This document shows, one piece after another, positions 2,390 through 19,135 of a stretch of 64,000 bases of DNA. The notes under the pieces were generated by a model. It ran no database searches and was not told the origin of the DNA. It saw only the letters and a program-made list of their open reading frames with translations. The DNA lies in the sequence record PZ445439.1. One strand, written 5' to 3'. This DNA comes from a phage. Position numbers and translations under genes: made by a program. How positions within the stretch are numbered: the stretch's first letter is position 1; every line of letters starts with the position of its first letter.

Positions 2390-2970
2390 TATTCACCACA
2401 GAATTCGTTGATATTTTCCCAGTTTAACTTATTCAAGTTTTTCTTAGGAACATTAAACACTTCAATACCTGCATTTCGCAGAATATCATCCCAGCCGGGT
2501 TTATTTTTATCGTATGTTTCACAATAAACCAGCTTTTTAATACCGGATTGAGCTATCGCTTTTGCGCAATCTGGACAAGGAGAAAGTGTTACATACATAG
2601 TAGCACCTTCAATTGAAGAACCATTTCGTGCAGCAAACAAAATTGCATTTAGTTCAGCATGAATTTCATTTTTAGACGACCATTCAGAGTGAGCACTGCG
2701 ATGTTCTTTCGCCAAGACAAAGCGATCAGTTGAACCAAACGATACACATTCAGGCTTATGACCTTGAATGATAGTATGTTTAGGCTTATTCAGCAACCAA
2801 CCTTGCTCAGCAGCATAATCGCAGCAATTCACACCGCCTGCAGGCGAACCGTTATATCCAGTAGAAATAATACGTCCATTCTTTTCAATTACTGCTCCTA
2901 CCTTCCAAGAGCAACATTTTGATTCTTGTGATACTAAATATGCAATTTGAAGTACTGTACTCGCTTTCAT
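2389..2970 (-). CDS. cd: dCMP deaminase
   Basis: 193 aa with HAELNAI and PCxxC zinc-deaminase motifs; ATGA overlap with upstream ORF. Confidence 0.9.
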   Translation of the reverse strand: MKASTVLQIAYLVSQESKCCSWKVGAVIEKNGRIISTGYNGSPAGGVNCCDYAAEQGWLLNKPKHTIIQGHKPECVSFGSTDRFVLAKEHRSAHSEWSSKNEIHAELNAILFAARNGSSIEGATMYVTLSPCPDCAKAIAQSGIKKLVYCETYDKNKPGWDDILRNAGIEVFNVPKKNLNKLNWENINEFCGE

Positions 2971-3305
2971 TTCATAATCACCAGATAAGCAGATTTAGCA
3001 GTTTCAACACGATAAATTTCGTGACGAAGTTTAGTTATACTTTTAATAACAGAACTAATTATATTCTGCCCATCTTTAAAGCGGTTTTTCTTATCAATAA
3101 AAATTGCACCAGCCATCTTTTTGTGAAGCTCAACTGGATACTTCGTCACAATAATAGCATCATACACAGAAGGATGAATACTATTCACTAGAGTATCATT
3201 CATTAAAGTTATTCTAATGAACTGTGCTGTTTCAGAATCAAGCGCTCTATGATCGCCAGTATCATTTTCAAGACAATTATCAATTATATCAGTTAAATTC
3301 ATCAT
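2967..3305 (-). CDS. hypothetical protein, 112 aa (cd.1 region)
   Basis: track ORF, ATG start. Confidence 0.5.
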   Translation of the reverse strand: MMNLTDIIDNCLENDTGDHRALDSETAQFIRITLMNDTLVNSIHPSVYDAIIVTKYPVELHKKMAGAIFIDKKNRFKDGQNIISSVIKSITKLRHEIYRVETAKSAYLVIMK

Positions 3306-8773: not shown

Positions 8774-9276
8774 TTAAAAATATTTTTTAAAACTCATCAT
8801 AACTTTATCATCAACATCATTATCAATCTGTGCAACAAGATAAGATGACAGTTCTACTTCTTGTGGCGCGGATTGAACATTATCAGAATTAAGATATTCA
8901 CGAATCCAAGGATATGGGTGTTTAACCGGAGCATCGGTAATTGGGCATGGAAGACCACACTGTTTCATACGAGATACAGTTAAGTAATCAATAAAGCTCC
9001 ACATGTTATTTGTATTTAATCCAGGAACATCGCCATCTTTAAATAAATGAACTGCCCAATCTTTTTCTTGGCGGTTAACTTCCATGAAAATATCAACTGC
9101 TTCTTGTTCACACTCTTGAGCAATTTTAACCCATTCATCGCCATCAGTGCCAAGTTGAAGTTGACGAATAATATATTGAGTGCCTTTAAGGTGAAGCTGT
9201 TCATCACGTGCAATGAACTTCATAATCTTGGCATTGCCTTCCATGATTTCCATATTCTTGTGGAAGTTAAAGGTAC
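8774..9276 (-). CDS. nrdB: ribonucleotide reductase small subunit, exon 2 (join with 10368..11043)
   Basis: encodes ..TFNFHKNMEIMEGNAKI.. R2 region; exon boundary inferred from codon arithmetic and terminal G of intron. Confidence 0.85.
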
Positions 9277-9412: not shown

Positions 9413-10222
9413 CTAGTCGTTGAACCTTGCTTTGCAATTGTCGCCGTGCCATCGTTTATATGTTGATGGTGATAAATCTTTCTTATCACAATATGGACAA
9501 TTCAATTGAATTCTATTTGGATTTAATTTACATCTGTCATTATGTTTTAGATAAAATCCAGGACCTTTACCAATGTGACCACAAAAATCACATGTGATTT
9601 CTTTTTGTGCAGGATGGGTCCCGTTCTTAACCATTTCTAATGTTTTTGCTGATGTTCTTTTCTTATGGTCTTCTGATAAGAAATGATGTGAACCGTCATT
9701 TACCCGTTTTGATTGAGTTTCTGACTGCATTTTACCACCGCAAAATACATGAGTACCTTCTTTTATAGCTGCAATATTGCGTTCTTTAACTTTTGCAATA
9801 TGCTCAGCTTGTTGAAAATTATGTATACCTAATGCAACTCTATTTAAATTAGATTTACGCTGTATTTCACCGTCTAAAAGATGAAATGTACCATTTTCTA
9901 TCTTAGATTTAATAGAGGCAATATTTTTAGCTCGTACTTCAGGGATATTAAAAATCTGGATTTCTCTAGATTTTGCGGCTTTAGAAGCTAATTCAGAAAT
10001 TTCTTCAGGAGAATATTTCATTCTAAGCTTTATAGCATGACAAGCCTGGTAATCTTTTTGAGCTAAATGTATATCATAATGTTCCTGTATAGAAAGGCAC
10101 ATCAAATTATCTAAATCATTATTTTCACGGTTACCGTCTTTATGATGGATTTCGTATGTTCTTCCATCAGAATCTTTAGGTATAGGTCCGTTAGCATCTA
10201 TCCAAATTTTTCTATAGTTCAA
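9413..10222 (-). CDS. HNH homing endonuclease, I-TevIII-like, full length 269 aa
   Basis: N-terminal HNH motif (EIHHKDGNRENNDLDNL), C-terminal Cys clusters; located inside the nrdB intron. Confidence 0.8.
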   Translation of the reverse strand: MNYRKIWIDANGPIPKDSDGRTYEIHHKDGNRENNDLDNLMCLSIQEHYDIHLAQKDYQACHAIKLRMKYSPEEISELASKAAKSREIQIFNIPEVRAKNIASIKSKIENGTFHLLDGEIQRKSNLNRVALGIHNFQQAEHIAKVKERNIAAIKEGTHVFCGGKMQSETQSKRVNDGSHHFLSEDHKKRTSAKTLEMVKNGTHPAQKEITCDFCGHIGKGPGFYLKHNDRCKLNPNRIQLNCPYCDKKDLSPSTYKRWHGDNCKARFND

Positions 10223-10257: not shown

Positions 10258-10367
10258 TTATACTAATTAAAGGTGCAAGCAAAACCTTGGCTGCTAGTTT
10301 TCCTATAAAGGACTTTCCAGCAATTAAAGGAGTTTTCGATAAACGTTACCGTTTAAAGGCGCATTTT

Positions 10368-11043
10368 ACGCAAAAGATACATAAAAACGAATTGCTTCTA
10401 AGGCATTAATAACGTGCAAACAGAGGTAAAGAGATTTCATTAGCTCACGCTTCCAATATGTCTCATGCTCAATAGCATCTTCAATAACGTCTTCGTCTGC
10501 ATTAATTTCTTTTTGGTATTCGATATCAGCTTTAGCGTTTTCCCAATAACGAGCTTTAACCAGAACATCATCATAATATCGTCCGATAGATTCGGCACGC
10601 TTCATAATAGCTTCATCTAATACAATCTCATCAAACACCTTCGATGGATCGGTATAAAGATTTCGCATAATATGAGTGTACGAACGAGAGTGAATAGTTT
10701 CACTGAATGTCCATGTTGCAACCCACGTATCTAATGAAGGGTCGGAAATCAGTGCCATAAGTACCGCAGATGGGGCCCTGCCTTGGATAGAATCTAATAA
10801 TGATTGATACTTAAGATTGTTTGTAAAGATGTCCTGTTGGAACTGAGGAAGCTTATTGAACTGCGCAGAGTCCAACATCAAGTTTACCTCTTCTGGGCGC
10901 CAGAAAAATGACAATTGCTTTTCAATAAGTTCTTCAAAAACTTTATGTCGCTGAATATCATAACGTGCGAGGCCAAGACCAGAACCAAAGAACATTGGTT
11001 CATTCAAAACATCGACTTGTTGTGTGTTAAAAACTGTACTCAT
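10368..11043 (-). CDS. nrdB: ribonucleotide reductase small subunit, exon 1
   Basis: R2 motifs up to ..NALEAIRFYVSFA then intron. Confidence 0.85.
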
Positions 11044-16202: not shown

Positions 16203-17105
16203 TTATAAACCAGCTAACAGGTCATCGAGGTCGCCATCATCAGAGGATGAGGTAGAGCTCATGAAGTCATCTTCAGTTTTTGCAGAACTAAAGGCTTCCA
16301 TGTCTTTATCAAAATCGTCAAGGTCAGAAGCAACTTTATCTGCAACAGAAGCTGCTGCGGCTGCTGCACCACCAAGAGCGGCAGTACCAAGAACCTTAGC
16401 GAAAGATTCATTTAATTTTTCAAAGGATTTGAACTGGTCTTTAGCCGTCAAAGTAGTAAGGTCTACCATCTGGTCATATAGTTCTTTCTGGAATGCTTCA
16501 TCATTAATACGAGGAATTTCAGATTGACCCAAGAATTTAGATTCGTCATAGTTGCTAAAACCGGAAACCTGCTTAGCTTTCAGAACGAAGTTGGCACCTT
16601 CAAACGGACAAGTAACATCAACTGGAGTTTCACCCATTTCGGTATCAACAGCAATCATTGCATTGATTTTGTCCCAAATCTTTTTACCGAAACGATATTT
16701 AAATACTTTACCTTCGTTATCTGGAGCTTGAGGGTCTTTAACAACCAGAATATTAGCCCAATAAGAAGTTTTACGTTTCAGTTGAGAATATTCATTTTTG
16801 TTGGTATTGTACAGGTCATTTTTACTAATGTACTGACATACAGGACAAGAGTCATAATCACCATGTGTAGAAGAGCAATTTTCAATATACCATTTACCAT
16901 TTTTCTTGAAACCATGGTTAACAAGAATTGCAAATGGTAGTGCATCATCAGTTTTTGCTGGCAAGAAACGAATTACCGCTTGACCATTACCGGATGCATC
17001 TAGCTTCAGCTTCCATTCGCCTTTATCTTCTGAAGAGAAACCTTTGTTACCATTCAGTTTAGCCATTTGAGCAGCGAGGTCAGCAGTAGATTTACGTTTA
17101 AACAT
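16203..17105 (-). CDS. 32: gp32 single-stranded DNA-binding protein
   Basis: 300 aa, matches recalled T4 gp32 including acidic C-terminus. Confidence 0.95.
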
Positions 17106-17160
17106 GGATTATTACCTTTTATTTAGATTATTTAATTTATTTACAGTTGGTTGCTACGAC
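17106..17160 (-). promoter_or_regulatory. gene 32 mRNA translational operator region (A/U-rich UUAAA-type repeats)
   Basis: mRNA leader ..UAAAUAAAUUAAAUAAUCUAAAUAAAAGGUAAUAAUCC-AUG preceded by a 7 bp hairpin. Confidence 0.45.
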
Positions 17161-17186
17161 ACTTATACCTCGTAGCTGGTATGATT

Positions 17187-17194
17187 TATTTATA
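17187..17194 (-). promoter_or_regulatory. late promoter TATAAATA upstream of gene 32
   Basis: exact TATAAATA on minus strand about 80 nt before gene 32 ATG. Confidence 0.35.
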
Positions 17195-17223
17195 AAGTAA
17201 TTTTAACACACAAGAAATAAAGC

Positions 17224-17877
17224 TTAATACTTACATGATTTGATTGTTTCTATGAACAATTTCTTAGCAACATTTCCATCGATTTGAAGTATTTTTCGAT
17301 ATGCCTTTAATTTGGTAGAATAATTTTGCCAGACTAAGTTATCGGTGAGTTCGTCGTGCTTATCTATAATATTCAAAAACGAGTCCAACAATAAGAAAGT
17401 CTCAAATGAAATTATATTGCTTTGTAACAATTTAAATATGTAGCTCGACTGAACTTTATTATTATAATCAAATATCTCTTGAAGCGCACTAACTTCCACT
17501 TTCTTACTGAAATAGTAGATGTTACGTACGTCTTCAGCAAACGTCTCTTTAGCTTGTTTGAGACGTCCAATATATTCCCTATAGAAAACTAATGCATCAG
17601 CGTCTGATATCTCACCAATCCATGCGTCTTGGTTAGCAACTAAGTTGCTTATGAATATCAAGGTGAGTTCCTTCAATTTATATTTCTCTGCTAGTTTTTC
17701 AAAGAAATATTTATCTCGGCGTTTTTGATACGCATTATCCGAAACACGCATGCGCCAGTTATATTTGATTACGTCATACCGACCACCAAAGTGGTTTTTG
17801 CACATCAAGTATAGTTTATATACTGATTTACCGTTAATATAACGTTCTCCGTCAGGAGGCATGCGTATTTTAATCAT
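17224..17877 (-). CDS. 59: gp59 helicase loader
   Basis: 217 aa, matches recalled T4 gp59. Confidence 0.9.
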   Translation of the reverse strand: MIKIRMPPDGERYINGKSVYKLYLMCKNHFGGRYDVIKYNWRMRVSDNAYQKRRDKYFFEKLAEKYKLKELTLIFISNLVANQDAWIGEISDADALVFYREYIGRLKQAKETFAEDVRNIYYFSKKVEVSALQEIFDYNNKVQSSYIFKLLQSNIISFETFLLLDSFLNIIDKHDELTDNLVWQNYSTKLKAYRKILQIDGNVAKKLFIETIKSCKY

Positions 17878-18553
17878 AGTTCCATCCAGGCCATTTTGAA
17901 GATTTAAGTCTATACGTAACTAGAGATGCAGAAATATTAAAAACATCCGAAACTTCTGTGCATGATGAGTATTTTATACCATCAATAATTATAGGTTTTT
18001 GTTTTTTAATAGTTCTTTCTTTAGAATGCGGCTTTGAATTTGCTATTCTAAGAGCTTCTTTGGTTGAATCAGGCATCGGCTTATTCGTTTTTCGCCCTTT
18101 TCGGACTTTACTCAAAGCTAATTTATGAGCTTCAGATAGTTTCTTACCCTTATTAGGGGATGGTATTTTTCTTTCTAATCTGGTTTTAGATACTTTAGCC
18201 TTAGTCTCTTCAGATCTAGGTTTCCCTATTTTAGAAAGTGAAATAGCCCTTTTAGCTTCATCACTTTGTTTTTTACCAGGGCCACCTTTACCACCTGGAA
18301 CCAGGTTATAAGTATCAGTTCGCAAAACAAAATCTTCATTAACCAATTCTGCTTCTTTTTTATAGGCGTCCTTGTCATTATCATATTCATAAAGAACTTC
18401 AGTATAAAAATTTTTTAGCCCGTATTTAGCTTTGGCCGCTAATATAGCGCGACCAGACCCAATATACCAATCTTTCTCTTTATGTTTTTTGTGTACGCCT
18501 ATATAAATTTTACCATTTATTTTATTGGTAGTTTTATACACAACGTATTTCAT
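17870..18553 (-). CDS. free-standing GIY-YIG homing endonuclease-like protein (Seg-like), 227 aa
   Basis: N-terminal GIY-YIG-type motif (VVYKTT..GKIYIGV); Lys-rich NUMOD-like repeats; overlaps gene 59 by 8 nt and gene 33 by 4 nt. Confidence 0.8.
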   Translation of the reverse strand: MKYVVYKTTNKINGKIYIGVHKKHKEKDWYIGSGRAILAAKAKYGLKNFYTEVLYEYDNDKDAYKKEAELVNEDFVLRTDTYNLVPGGKGGPGKKQSDEAKRAISLSKIGKPRSEETKAKVSKTRLERKIPSPNKGKKLSEAHKLALSKVRKGRKTNKPMPDSTKEALRIANSKPHSKERTIKKQKPIIIDGIKYSSCTEVSDVFNISASLVTYRLKSSKWPGWNYD

Positions 18554-18888
18554 AATAAGAAATCTAACGTATTAGTTTTTTCACCACGAGCAACTGATGG
18601 GCGAAGCATGTTTTCGTCAATTGCTTCGCTTGTAATTTTTTCAATAATTCCTGTAGGAATAAATTTAGCAAATTGTGTTTCTGGAATAGAATTTTCTTCC
18701 AAGAAAGCAGTTGTTGCTTCTAAATAAGACATACCGAATTGTTCAACCATGGATTCGATAATGAATCCGTTTTCTTGTCTGTCAAGCAATTTAGCGATAT
18801 CATCTTTATCGTGTTTTACTGCTAATTCTTGTTCAGATAAACCGGCCTCATCAACCGGTTTAATATCACTTAGTGAAAACTGTGTCAT
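18550..18888 (-). CDS. 33: gp33 late transcription co-activator
   Basis: 112 aa, matches recalled T4 gp33. Confidence 0.85.
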   Translation of the reverse strand: MTQFSLSDIKPVDEAGLSEQELAVKHDKDDIAKLLDRQENGFIIESMVEQFGMSYLEATTAFLEENSIPETQFAKFIPTGIIEKITSEAIDENMLRPSVARGEKTNTLDFLL

Positions 18889-19135
18889 AAAGCTCGACTA
18901 CCTCTTCGTTTTCAGCTTCAAATTGGTCACGAGCGTCTTTATGATAAAGAGCTAACAAACGATTAAACATTTTTCCATCGACACCAAGCTCTTCTTTAGC
19001 ACGAGTACGAATGTCTTTAATCAGTTCATTATAACCAGAAATTTTAAGTTTGTTATCGGAAGCTTCCTTGACTAGTTTAGCCAGTTCTTCACCATGCACA
19101 TCTTGATTAAATTCAACTGCTTCTTTCTTAGCCAT
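18866..19135 (-). CDS. dsbA: double-stranded DNA-binding protein DsbA
   Basis: 89 aa from internal Met (MAKKEAVEF..), matches recalled T4 DsbA. Confidence 0.8.
   Translation of the reverse strand: MAKKEAVEFNQDVHGEELAKLVKEASDNKLKISGYNELIKDIRTRAKEELGVDGKMFNRLLALYHKDARDQFEAENEEVVELYDTVFTK

Follow-up and report, generated by a model that had tools for sequence, protein, structure and literature searches.

The locus lies in a window of 64,000 nucleotides of phage DNA (sequence record PZ445439.1; the window is the whole stretch analysed, position 1 being its first letter). In this window, the open reading frame (ORF) list revealed a gene for a Seg-type GIY-YIG homing endonuclease (HEG) between genes 59 and 33, and the following features were assigned:

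16203-17105, minus strand: gene 32.
17224-17877, minus strand: gene 59, coding for the helicase loader (Pfam T4_Gp59_N/C); its first ~20 nt are the downstream half of the presumed target.
17870-18553, minus strand: Seg-type GIY-YIG HEG ORF with an ATG start, 227 aa plus TAA (ORF list).
17873-18013, minus strand: C-terminal I-TevI-type helix-turn-helix DNA-binding domain, aa 181-227 (PF20987 and 1i3j matches).
18014-18277, minus strand: basic linker, aa 93-180, with four NUMOD3-like helical repeats (Pfam NUMOD3 and AlphaFold2 helices).
18278-18553, minus strand: GIY-YIG catalytic domain, aa 1-92, with VVY (4-6)...YIG (17-19), H21, Y30/G32 (YxGSG), E67, N83 and GG87-88.
17874-18549, no strand: 676-nt insertion in comparison with HEG-less relatives (16-genome alignment).
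18550-18888, minus strand: gene 33, coding for the late-transcription coactivator (Pfam Trans_coact, 1.7e-26).
19153-18866, minus strand: dsbA.
20060-19143, minus strand: rnh.

Along the minus strand, the gene order was rnh, dsbA, 33, the HEG ORF, 59, 32, frd.2 and a DUF5417 gene, with the neighbours assigned via Pfam. In this T4-like (Mosigvirus) phage, the HEG occupies the exact border between two essential genes. It shares 8 nt with gene 59 (17870-17877) and 4 nt with gene 33 (18550-18553), where the HEG ATG lies on the gene 33 TGA in the overlap ATGA; both overlaps and the length of 227 aa had been stated in an earlier annotation of this DNA (the original prediction) and were borne out by the ORF listing. 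The gene 59 ATG is located 8 nt inside the HEG 3' end and, since the same 8 nt close the HEG and open gene 59, the HEG TAA stop codon is built from gene 59 codons 2-3 (ATGATTAA). The spacer between genes 32 and 59, given beforehand as about 118 bp, measured 118 nt and contained no segG. The T4 layout given in the original prediction agreed with the T4 annotation, where SegG is placed between 59 and 32, and 33 and 59 overlap by ATGA. As a side observation, the original prediction had given no strand for the ORF, which is minus, and had overlooked the C-terminal I-TevI-type helix-turn-helix (residues 183-226).

Profile searches with the ORF returned PHROG_314 'homing endonuclease' (E=4e-55), NCBIfam TIGR01453 with 74.1 bits against a cutoff of 56.05 (residues 4-224) and Pfam I-TevI_DNA-bd (PF20987) with 5.7e-11 (residues 183-226). 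Pfam NUMOD3 was matched with 20.7 bits, barely over the cutoff of 20.4, and the match to Pfam SegE_GIY-YIG stayed under its cutoff. Judged by these sequence matches, the ORF is a genuine gene and not a chance ORF.

Alignment of 58 homologues revealed the residues Y6, N10, N13, K15, Y17, G19, H21, Y30, G32, F49, E67, Y82, N83, G87 and G88 to be invariant, and all of them are present in the window protein, in line with the GIY-YIG-type N-terminus claimed for it, whose invariant catalytic residues were found in this alignment. Position 35 is R here and K in the family consensus, in a column that is not invariant; BLASTP set the region around the catalytic R27 of I-TevI against a gap in every Seg protein, and no clear aligned counterpart of this Arg emerged. 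In the linker (residues 93-180), Lys accounts for 22.7% and Lys+Arg for 31.8% of residues. Cores of the S-[DE]-E-x-K-x-x-[IV]-S type start at residues 97, 114, 140 and 161 and coincide with four helices predicted by AlphaFold2 (98-108, 115-128, 141-151 and 162-173); together with the NUMOD3 match, the Lys content, cores and helices confirmed the suggestion of Lys-rich NUMOD-like repeats.

The AlphaFold2 model of the protein had a mean pLDDT of 90. Its N-terminal domain found its best PDB fold match in the I-TevI catalytic domain 1mk0/1ln0 (prob 1.00, TM(target) 0.65), and PDB 1i3j, the I-TevI DNA-binding domain on substrate DNA, was matched both by sequence (5e-4) and by Foldseek (1i3j_A, prob 1.00). 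The only confident PDB fold matches were the I-TevI catalytic domain, the I-TevI DNA-binding domain and I-HmuI. With motifs containing two Tyr, Glu and Asn and a predicted I-TevI-like fold, the protein would belong to the GIY-YIG superfamily, and its nuclease, NUMOD-type linker and C-terminal helix-turn-helix place it with the bipartite I-TevI/Seg proteins (TIGR01453).

The closest genomes were Mosigvirus phages of the JS09/HX01/APCEc01 group. In the 16-genome alignment, the 676 columns of the insertion were present in 10/10 carriers and absent from 6/6 non-carriers; a 5-nt repeat, TCATA (TATGA on the gene strand), which occurs at 17874-17878 and again at 18550-18554, leaves 5 nt of ambiguity in the insertion ends. 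The junction of the empty allele reads ...TTATTATGATTAAAATACGC, and the HEG ATG takes the position of the gene 59 ATG of the empty genomes. The HEG was found in 28 of about 149 close Mosigvirus records (~19%), always at the same nucleotide. Carrier copies are 93-99.7% identical at the nucleotide level, and ~120 equally close records are without the HEG. The flanks of the non-carrier JK45 are 99.0% identical to the window, above those of every carrier. JK42 and JK45 are a carrier/non-carrier pair from one study. Precise presence/absence among near-identical genomes is the classic footprint of a mobile HEG. The HEG conforms with the free-standing Seg genes in this precise polymorphism and in lying on the same strand as the complete flanking genes 33 and 59. 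The claim of a site that is not occupied in T4 was also supported, considering that T4 33 and 59 abut by ATGA and that the junction could be aligned with that of the HEG-less relatives. The T4 junction showed 19 mismatches in 90 positions.

That the gene is free-standing and intron-less, as proposed, was evident from the ORF filling the insert and from the lack of an Rfam match. An endonuclease encoded in a group I intron could be suspected because the protein scores above the cutoff of TIGR01453, a 'group I intron endonuclease' model, and because the copies of 348Ecol098PP and WFbE185 are annotated 'intron endonuclease, group I'. However, the 684-nt ORF fills the 676-nt insertion and leaves no space for intron RNA, the gene lies between two separate complete genes, neither of which is interrupted, and the Rfam search for intron-like RNA returned no match at E<=1 over 17100-19000. 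By this anatomy, the intron-encoded endonuclease was refuted, and its probability is close to nil.

HEG identity and flank identity were discordant across genomes. Since these phages are generally mosaic around the locus, the discordance is not specific evidence of homing. Among the sampled genomes, no SNP in the flanks separated all carriers from all non-carriers, and no carrier-specific 'immunity' substitutions were present there, with the maximum allele-frequency difference being <0.8 everywhere and low near the junction. In gene 59, a variant haplotype at -88 to -50 was present in 3/6 non-carriers and 0/10 carriers, counts that are not phylogenetically independent. The JK45-type haplotype is defined by positions -88, -87, -80, -78, -56 and -50, and KAW3E185 and a20 have the other gene 59 haplotype. 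The signal of a co-conversion tract was weak, with gene 59 -88 to -50 being monomorphic in the 10 carriers of a small sample.

Regarding expression, the late-promoter motif TATAAATA was absent from the HEG and from the sequence just upstream of it, the nearest one on the minus strand being located at 17187-17194, before gene 32. Sigma-70-like matches were no commoner than in shuffles, and no minus-strand terminator was found inside the insert. A MotA-box-like TTGCTTGA within gene 33 (about 18790) was spotted by eye. Start-sequestering RNA hairpins occur in I-TevI, segB and mobE; at the HEG start codon, the RNA fold was no better than that of shuffles (z=0.19), and the gene 59 start in the filled allele (z=1.07 against shuffles) gave no evidence of a hairpin. 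Given that no late-promoter motif or terminator, no start-codon structure and no intron-like RNA were found in the insert, the HEG is most plausibly a promoterless cassette, a description that Edgell et al. gave to segC, segF, segG and several mob genes (PMC2988022).

Due to the ATGA overlap and the lack of a Shine-Dalgarno sequence, HEG translation is most simply explained by coupling to the termination of gene 33, as is also suggested by the HEG ATG replacing the gene 59 ATG. Because TATGA is restored at the 3' end of the element, gene 59 still has a start codon, which is now coupled to the HEG.

Pairwise dN/dS was 0.09 for the HEG (0.08-0.13 for its three domains), in comparison with 0.065 for gp59, 0.106 for gp32 and 0.02-0.03 for gp33 and rnh. 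Nine of the ten sampled copies are intact; in the AV116 copy, a 1-nt insertion causes a frameshift with a stop at codon 108. We conclude that the intact HEG copies are under purifying selection. A decaying relic without activity, retained because its removal would disturb the translational coupling of gene 59, could account for the frameshifted AV116 copy, and the HEG supplying the start context of gene 59 could hinder its deletion; T4 itself has defunct HEGs, namely mobA and I-TevIII. This explanation is contradicted by the large share of intact copies, by a dN/dS of about 0.09 that holds across all three domains and by the presence of every invariant catalytic residue, and the clean empty site in many relatives implies that precise absence is viable. 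We therefore regard a relic as very improbable.

The T4 paralogues were compared by BLASTP, and T4 SegD was the best T4 match, with 35% identity over the full length (E=4e-38). SegD has the same build of GIY-YIG domain, NUMOD3-like linker and C-terminal helix-turn-helix as the window protein, but its locus differs: it is located between genes 23 and 24, on the strand opposite to its neighbours (PMC2988022). True SegD orthologues, with ~37% identity to the window protein, adjoin the capsid genes (23|24 site). Assignment of the window gene as a SegD orthologue was rejected, since the 33|59 group (46-100% identity) is distinct from this capsid-side group. SegC, SegB, SegE and SegA followed SegD, with matches restricted to the N-terminal domain; the N-termini of SegB/C/D/E/A are 38-47% identical to that of the window protein.

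The T4 SegG gene resembles the window gene in that it, too, is free-standing, codes for a GIY-YIG homing endonuclease, belongs to the same operon at a distance of one gene and forms a promoterless cassette (PMC2988022). It differs in occupying another junction (59|32) and in showing no BLASTP similarity to the window protein; with no match at E<=10 and a different junction, an orthologue of SegG was rejected as well. The comparison with SegA-SegG suggested in the original prediction accordingly gave matches to SegD, SegC, SegB, SegE and SegA, along with I-TevI, but none to SegG. At the 59|32 site, true SegG-like genes occur in L012, L020, L032 and AnYang, the last of which has both the 33|59 HEG and a SegG-like gene at 59|32. 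I-TevI, the endonuclease of the T4 td intron, was matched with 27% identity (E=2e-9) and has the bipartite build and TIGR01453 in common with the window protein. It differs in being intron-encoded, with a Zn finger in the linker, whereas the window gene is free-standing and codes for a linker of four NUMOD3-like helices.

Outside Mosigvirus, orthologues with 46-57% protein identity were found at 33|59 in the same orientation, likewise overlapping gene 33 by ATGA. Carriers were the Dhakavirus phages AnYang, IME540 and LQ5, the Winklervirus phages CHI14, CBH8, Kc304 and LC53, Enterobacter phage KMB20 and the metagenomic P0003, P0008 and P0013. These orthologues share the domain order of the window protein, and their overlap with gene 59 is 8 or 26 nt. 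Their ORFs start with ATGATTAAR/CGT, a copy of the gene 59 start; unlike them, the window copy has no ATT codon there, and its 3' end is 3 nt shorter. The CHI14 orthologue bears the note 'segD', and one 39% homologue lies in a different gene arrangement. Among 42 diverse Tevenvirinae loci of IMG/VR, 33 and 59 abut in 40/42 and the junction is filled in 1/42. This panel is too diverged and too strongly dereplicated for population analysis, so that GenBank loci were used for that purpose.

Nucleotide conservation was strongest over the first ~20 nt of gene 59 (ATGATTAAAnTCCGCATGCC) and was also high over the final codons of gene 33 (...TNTLDFLL), which by position and conservation are the upstream half of the presumed target. 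They code for the C-terminal tail of gp33, which we take to be its clamp-binding tail. HEGs typically target such constrained sequence.

The annotated Mosigvirus copies, among them those of Shigella phage SSE1 (QBZ71074.1), vB_VIPECOMC06 and PHB12 (QBP05594.1), have 95.6-100% protein identity and the same insertion and overlaps. The proteins of SSE1 and vB_VIPECOMC06 are 100% identical and annotated 'homing endonuclease', and PHB12 QBP05594.1 is labelled 'putative Seg-like homing DNA endonuclease'. The LC53 paper reports a HEG adjoining gp33 in LC53 and Kc304 that is absent from Virsaitis27 (PMC10132071). The novelty implied by the original prediction did not hold, because 28 close relatives contain the same gene at the same nucleotide and under existing annotations, which is what that prediction had itself named as evidence against it; the gene is, therefore, not new. 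It is an already annotated, ordinary member of the well-known Seg class. In full-text literature searches, neither a specific name for the 33|59 HEG nor a report of cleavage, homing or exclusion by the window protein or any orthologue was found.

Taken as a whole, the locus is probably best explained by a functional, free-standing Seg-type HEG that is carried as a promoterless cassette in the Mosigvirus rnh-dsbA-33-59-32 transcription unit and homes into the 33|59 junction. Cleavage, homing and marker exclusion by the HEG are inferred by analogy, with I-TevI, SegF and SegG serving as the systems of comparison for the homing mechanism. In a mixed infection, the C-terminal domain of the HEG would bind the uninterrupted 33|59 junction of a HEG-less phage, where the putative target, as suggested by position and conservation, comprises the conserved C-terminal codons of gp33 and the first ~20 nt of gene 59. 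The tethered GIY-YIG nuclease would then make a double-strand break nearby, and T4-type recombination-dependent repair would copy the HEG together with adjacent markers from the carrier genome. The carrier itself is proposed to be immune, because the insertion separates the half-sites by 676 nt, and the lack of fixed flank SNPs speaks for such immunity by disruption.

SegG is described as causing marker exclusion of T2 gene 32 (Liu et al. 2003, as cited in PMC10448857), and the title of the SegG paper, as listed there, mentions a 'distant cleavage site'. Against the homing proposal, Seg cutting can take place hundreds of bp from the insertion site, as is established for SegG, and T4 SegD, the closest paralogue to have been characterised, reportedly fails to home its own gene, according to a 2018 title cited in PMC10448857.

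An active endonuclease which, like SegD, cuts elsewhere and does not or never did home its own gene would be kept for a benefit to the phage, such as competitor exclusion or recombination/amplification as for SegB, or because precise deletion is rare. The position of SegD as the closest T4 paralogue speaks for such an enzyme, as does a report, in the abstract of PMC13096335, that SegB amplifies anti-defence loci. Strong purifying selection fits a host-level benefit as well as selfish activity, and with only ~19% of close relatives carrying the HEG, it is not sweeping. On the other hand, target-specific homing is the simplest explanation for the strict site fidelity, which spans at least four genera and identities as low as 46%. 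The precise presence/absence among near-identical genomes points in the same direction, and the SegD orthologues form a separate group at 23|24. Considering both sides, we judge an enzyme that does not home its own gene to be rather unlikely, and homing into the 33|59 junction remains the preferred explanation.

Going beyond homing in Mosigvirus, we tentatively consider an old, site-faithful element that has tracked the target of gp33 tail and gene 59 start in at least four Tevenvirinae genera and that, together with SegG, brackets gene 59. As part of the same tentative reading, the start of the element appears, from its sequence, to have been acquired from the opening codons of gene 59; in one lineage, the ATGATTAAR repeat of 8-9 nt equals the host ATGATTCGT. 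If this were true, the HEG and SegG would flank gene 59 as a cassette, as in AnYang, and would drive the exchange of helicase-loader alleles. The gene 59 haplotype at -88 to -44 that is restricted to non-carriers would then represent cleavage-resistant alleles and pinpoint where the enzyme recognises or cuts its target.

That T4-like phages carry free-standing GIY-YIG homing endonucleases is textbook knowledge, and with the gene already annotated in public records, the significance of the finding beyond bookkeeping is small. The 33|59 HEG is, nevertheless, a convenient study system, because it offers a defined target junction, natural carrier/non-carrier pairs, a frameshifted allele and orthologues in multiple genera. 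It could be used for studying target recognition, co-conversion and HEG turnover, and it is a possible source of a new I-TevI-like module of DNA-binding domain and nuclease. For the biology of the genus, it implies that Mosigvirus phages are not uniformly HEG-free, despite RB69 having been described as being without HEGs (PMC2993671).

Comparison of the ends of the Seg-type GIY-YIG homing endonuclease gene (HEG) revealed ATGATTAAR at the 5' end of the orthologous genes, as evident from the HEG starts in five comparison loci (L008, L009, L103, L105 and L107). In the metagenomic T4-like phage P0008, the HEG starts with ATGATTCGT, which is the same as the gene 59 start of its own lineage. The HEG start thus copies that of gene 59, so that the start of gene 59 is found at both ends of the element as a direct repeat of 8-9 nt. 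In the Winklervirus CHI14, the 5' copy of the repeat is not equal to the start of the host gp59, and it therefore seems that this copy travels with the element. Relative to the ATGATTAAR orthologues, the HEG start of the window (18545-18553) was found to be missing the ATT codon, and the window's copy is also shorter by 3 nt at the 3' end.

Further arrangements in this region were found in a Dhakavirus and in a distant T4-like contig:

L009 (Escherichia phage AnYang), 986-1603 and 2264-2950: GIY-YIG HEGs on both sides of gene 59.
L108 (metagenome scaffold, 160,891 bp), 2501-3160, orientation opposite to its neighbours: HEG homologue, 39% identity.

In AnYang, the gene between 59 and 32 is SegG-like (58% identity to T4 SegG), and that between 33 and 59 is the orthologue of the window HEG (56% identity). 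The homologue in L108 is flanked on one side by a gp59-sized ORF adjoining gp32 and on the other by genes leading to gp33. A TnsA-like ORF was also observed near it. The element is in decay in Escherichia phage AV116 (L096, 1867-2551), where the HEG copy carries a 1-nt insertion leading to a stop at codon 108; the sole annotation of this allele in GenBank is a 138-aa C-terminal 'hypothetical protein'.

Another endonuclease ORF of the window lies at the following locus:

9413-10222, (-) strand: full-length HNH ORF, 269 aa, 95% identical to the truncated I-TevIII remnants of T4.
10366-11043 and 8774-9253: two ORFs resembling the two halves of nrdB, on either side of the HNH ORF.

No intron model was matched at this locus in Rfam at the gathering threshold. 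Given the position of the HNH ORF between the apparent nrdB halves, the region may represent a group I intron of nrdB carrying an intact I-TevIII, as in RB3.

Comparing gene 32 (window 16203-17105) with L091, L095, L096 and L097 revealed two haplotype classes, ~8-11% apart, in genomes otherwise ~98% identical across neighbouring genes. The mosaicism of this block is local and bears no relation to the presence or absence of the HEG. Escherichia phage AV110 (L092, 101-352) has an additional segment of ~260 bp between frd.2 and gene 32, containing a hypothetical ORF of 83 aa; this segment is missing from the window and the remaining panel genomes. The locus of Shigella phage JK45 (L002, MK962757) shows 99% identity to Mosigvirus genomes and to the window; its record label, 'Tequatrovirus jaykay', is probably a taxonomy error.

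Close to the junction of genes 33 and 59, gene 59 itself varies:

17786-17830 (gene 59 codons ~16-30): linked variant haplotype, positions -88, -87, -80, -78, -56 and -50 from the junction.

In a small, phylogenetically non-independent sample, the variant haplotype was present in three of the six HEG-less genomes (JK45, APCEc01 and MM02) and in none of the ten carriers. This haplotype could be a trace left by co-conversion or, alternatively, a form of the target that resists cleavage.
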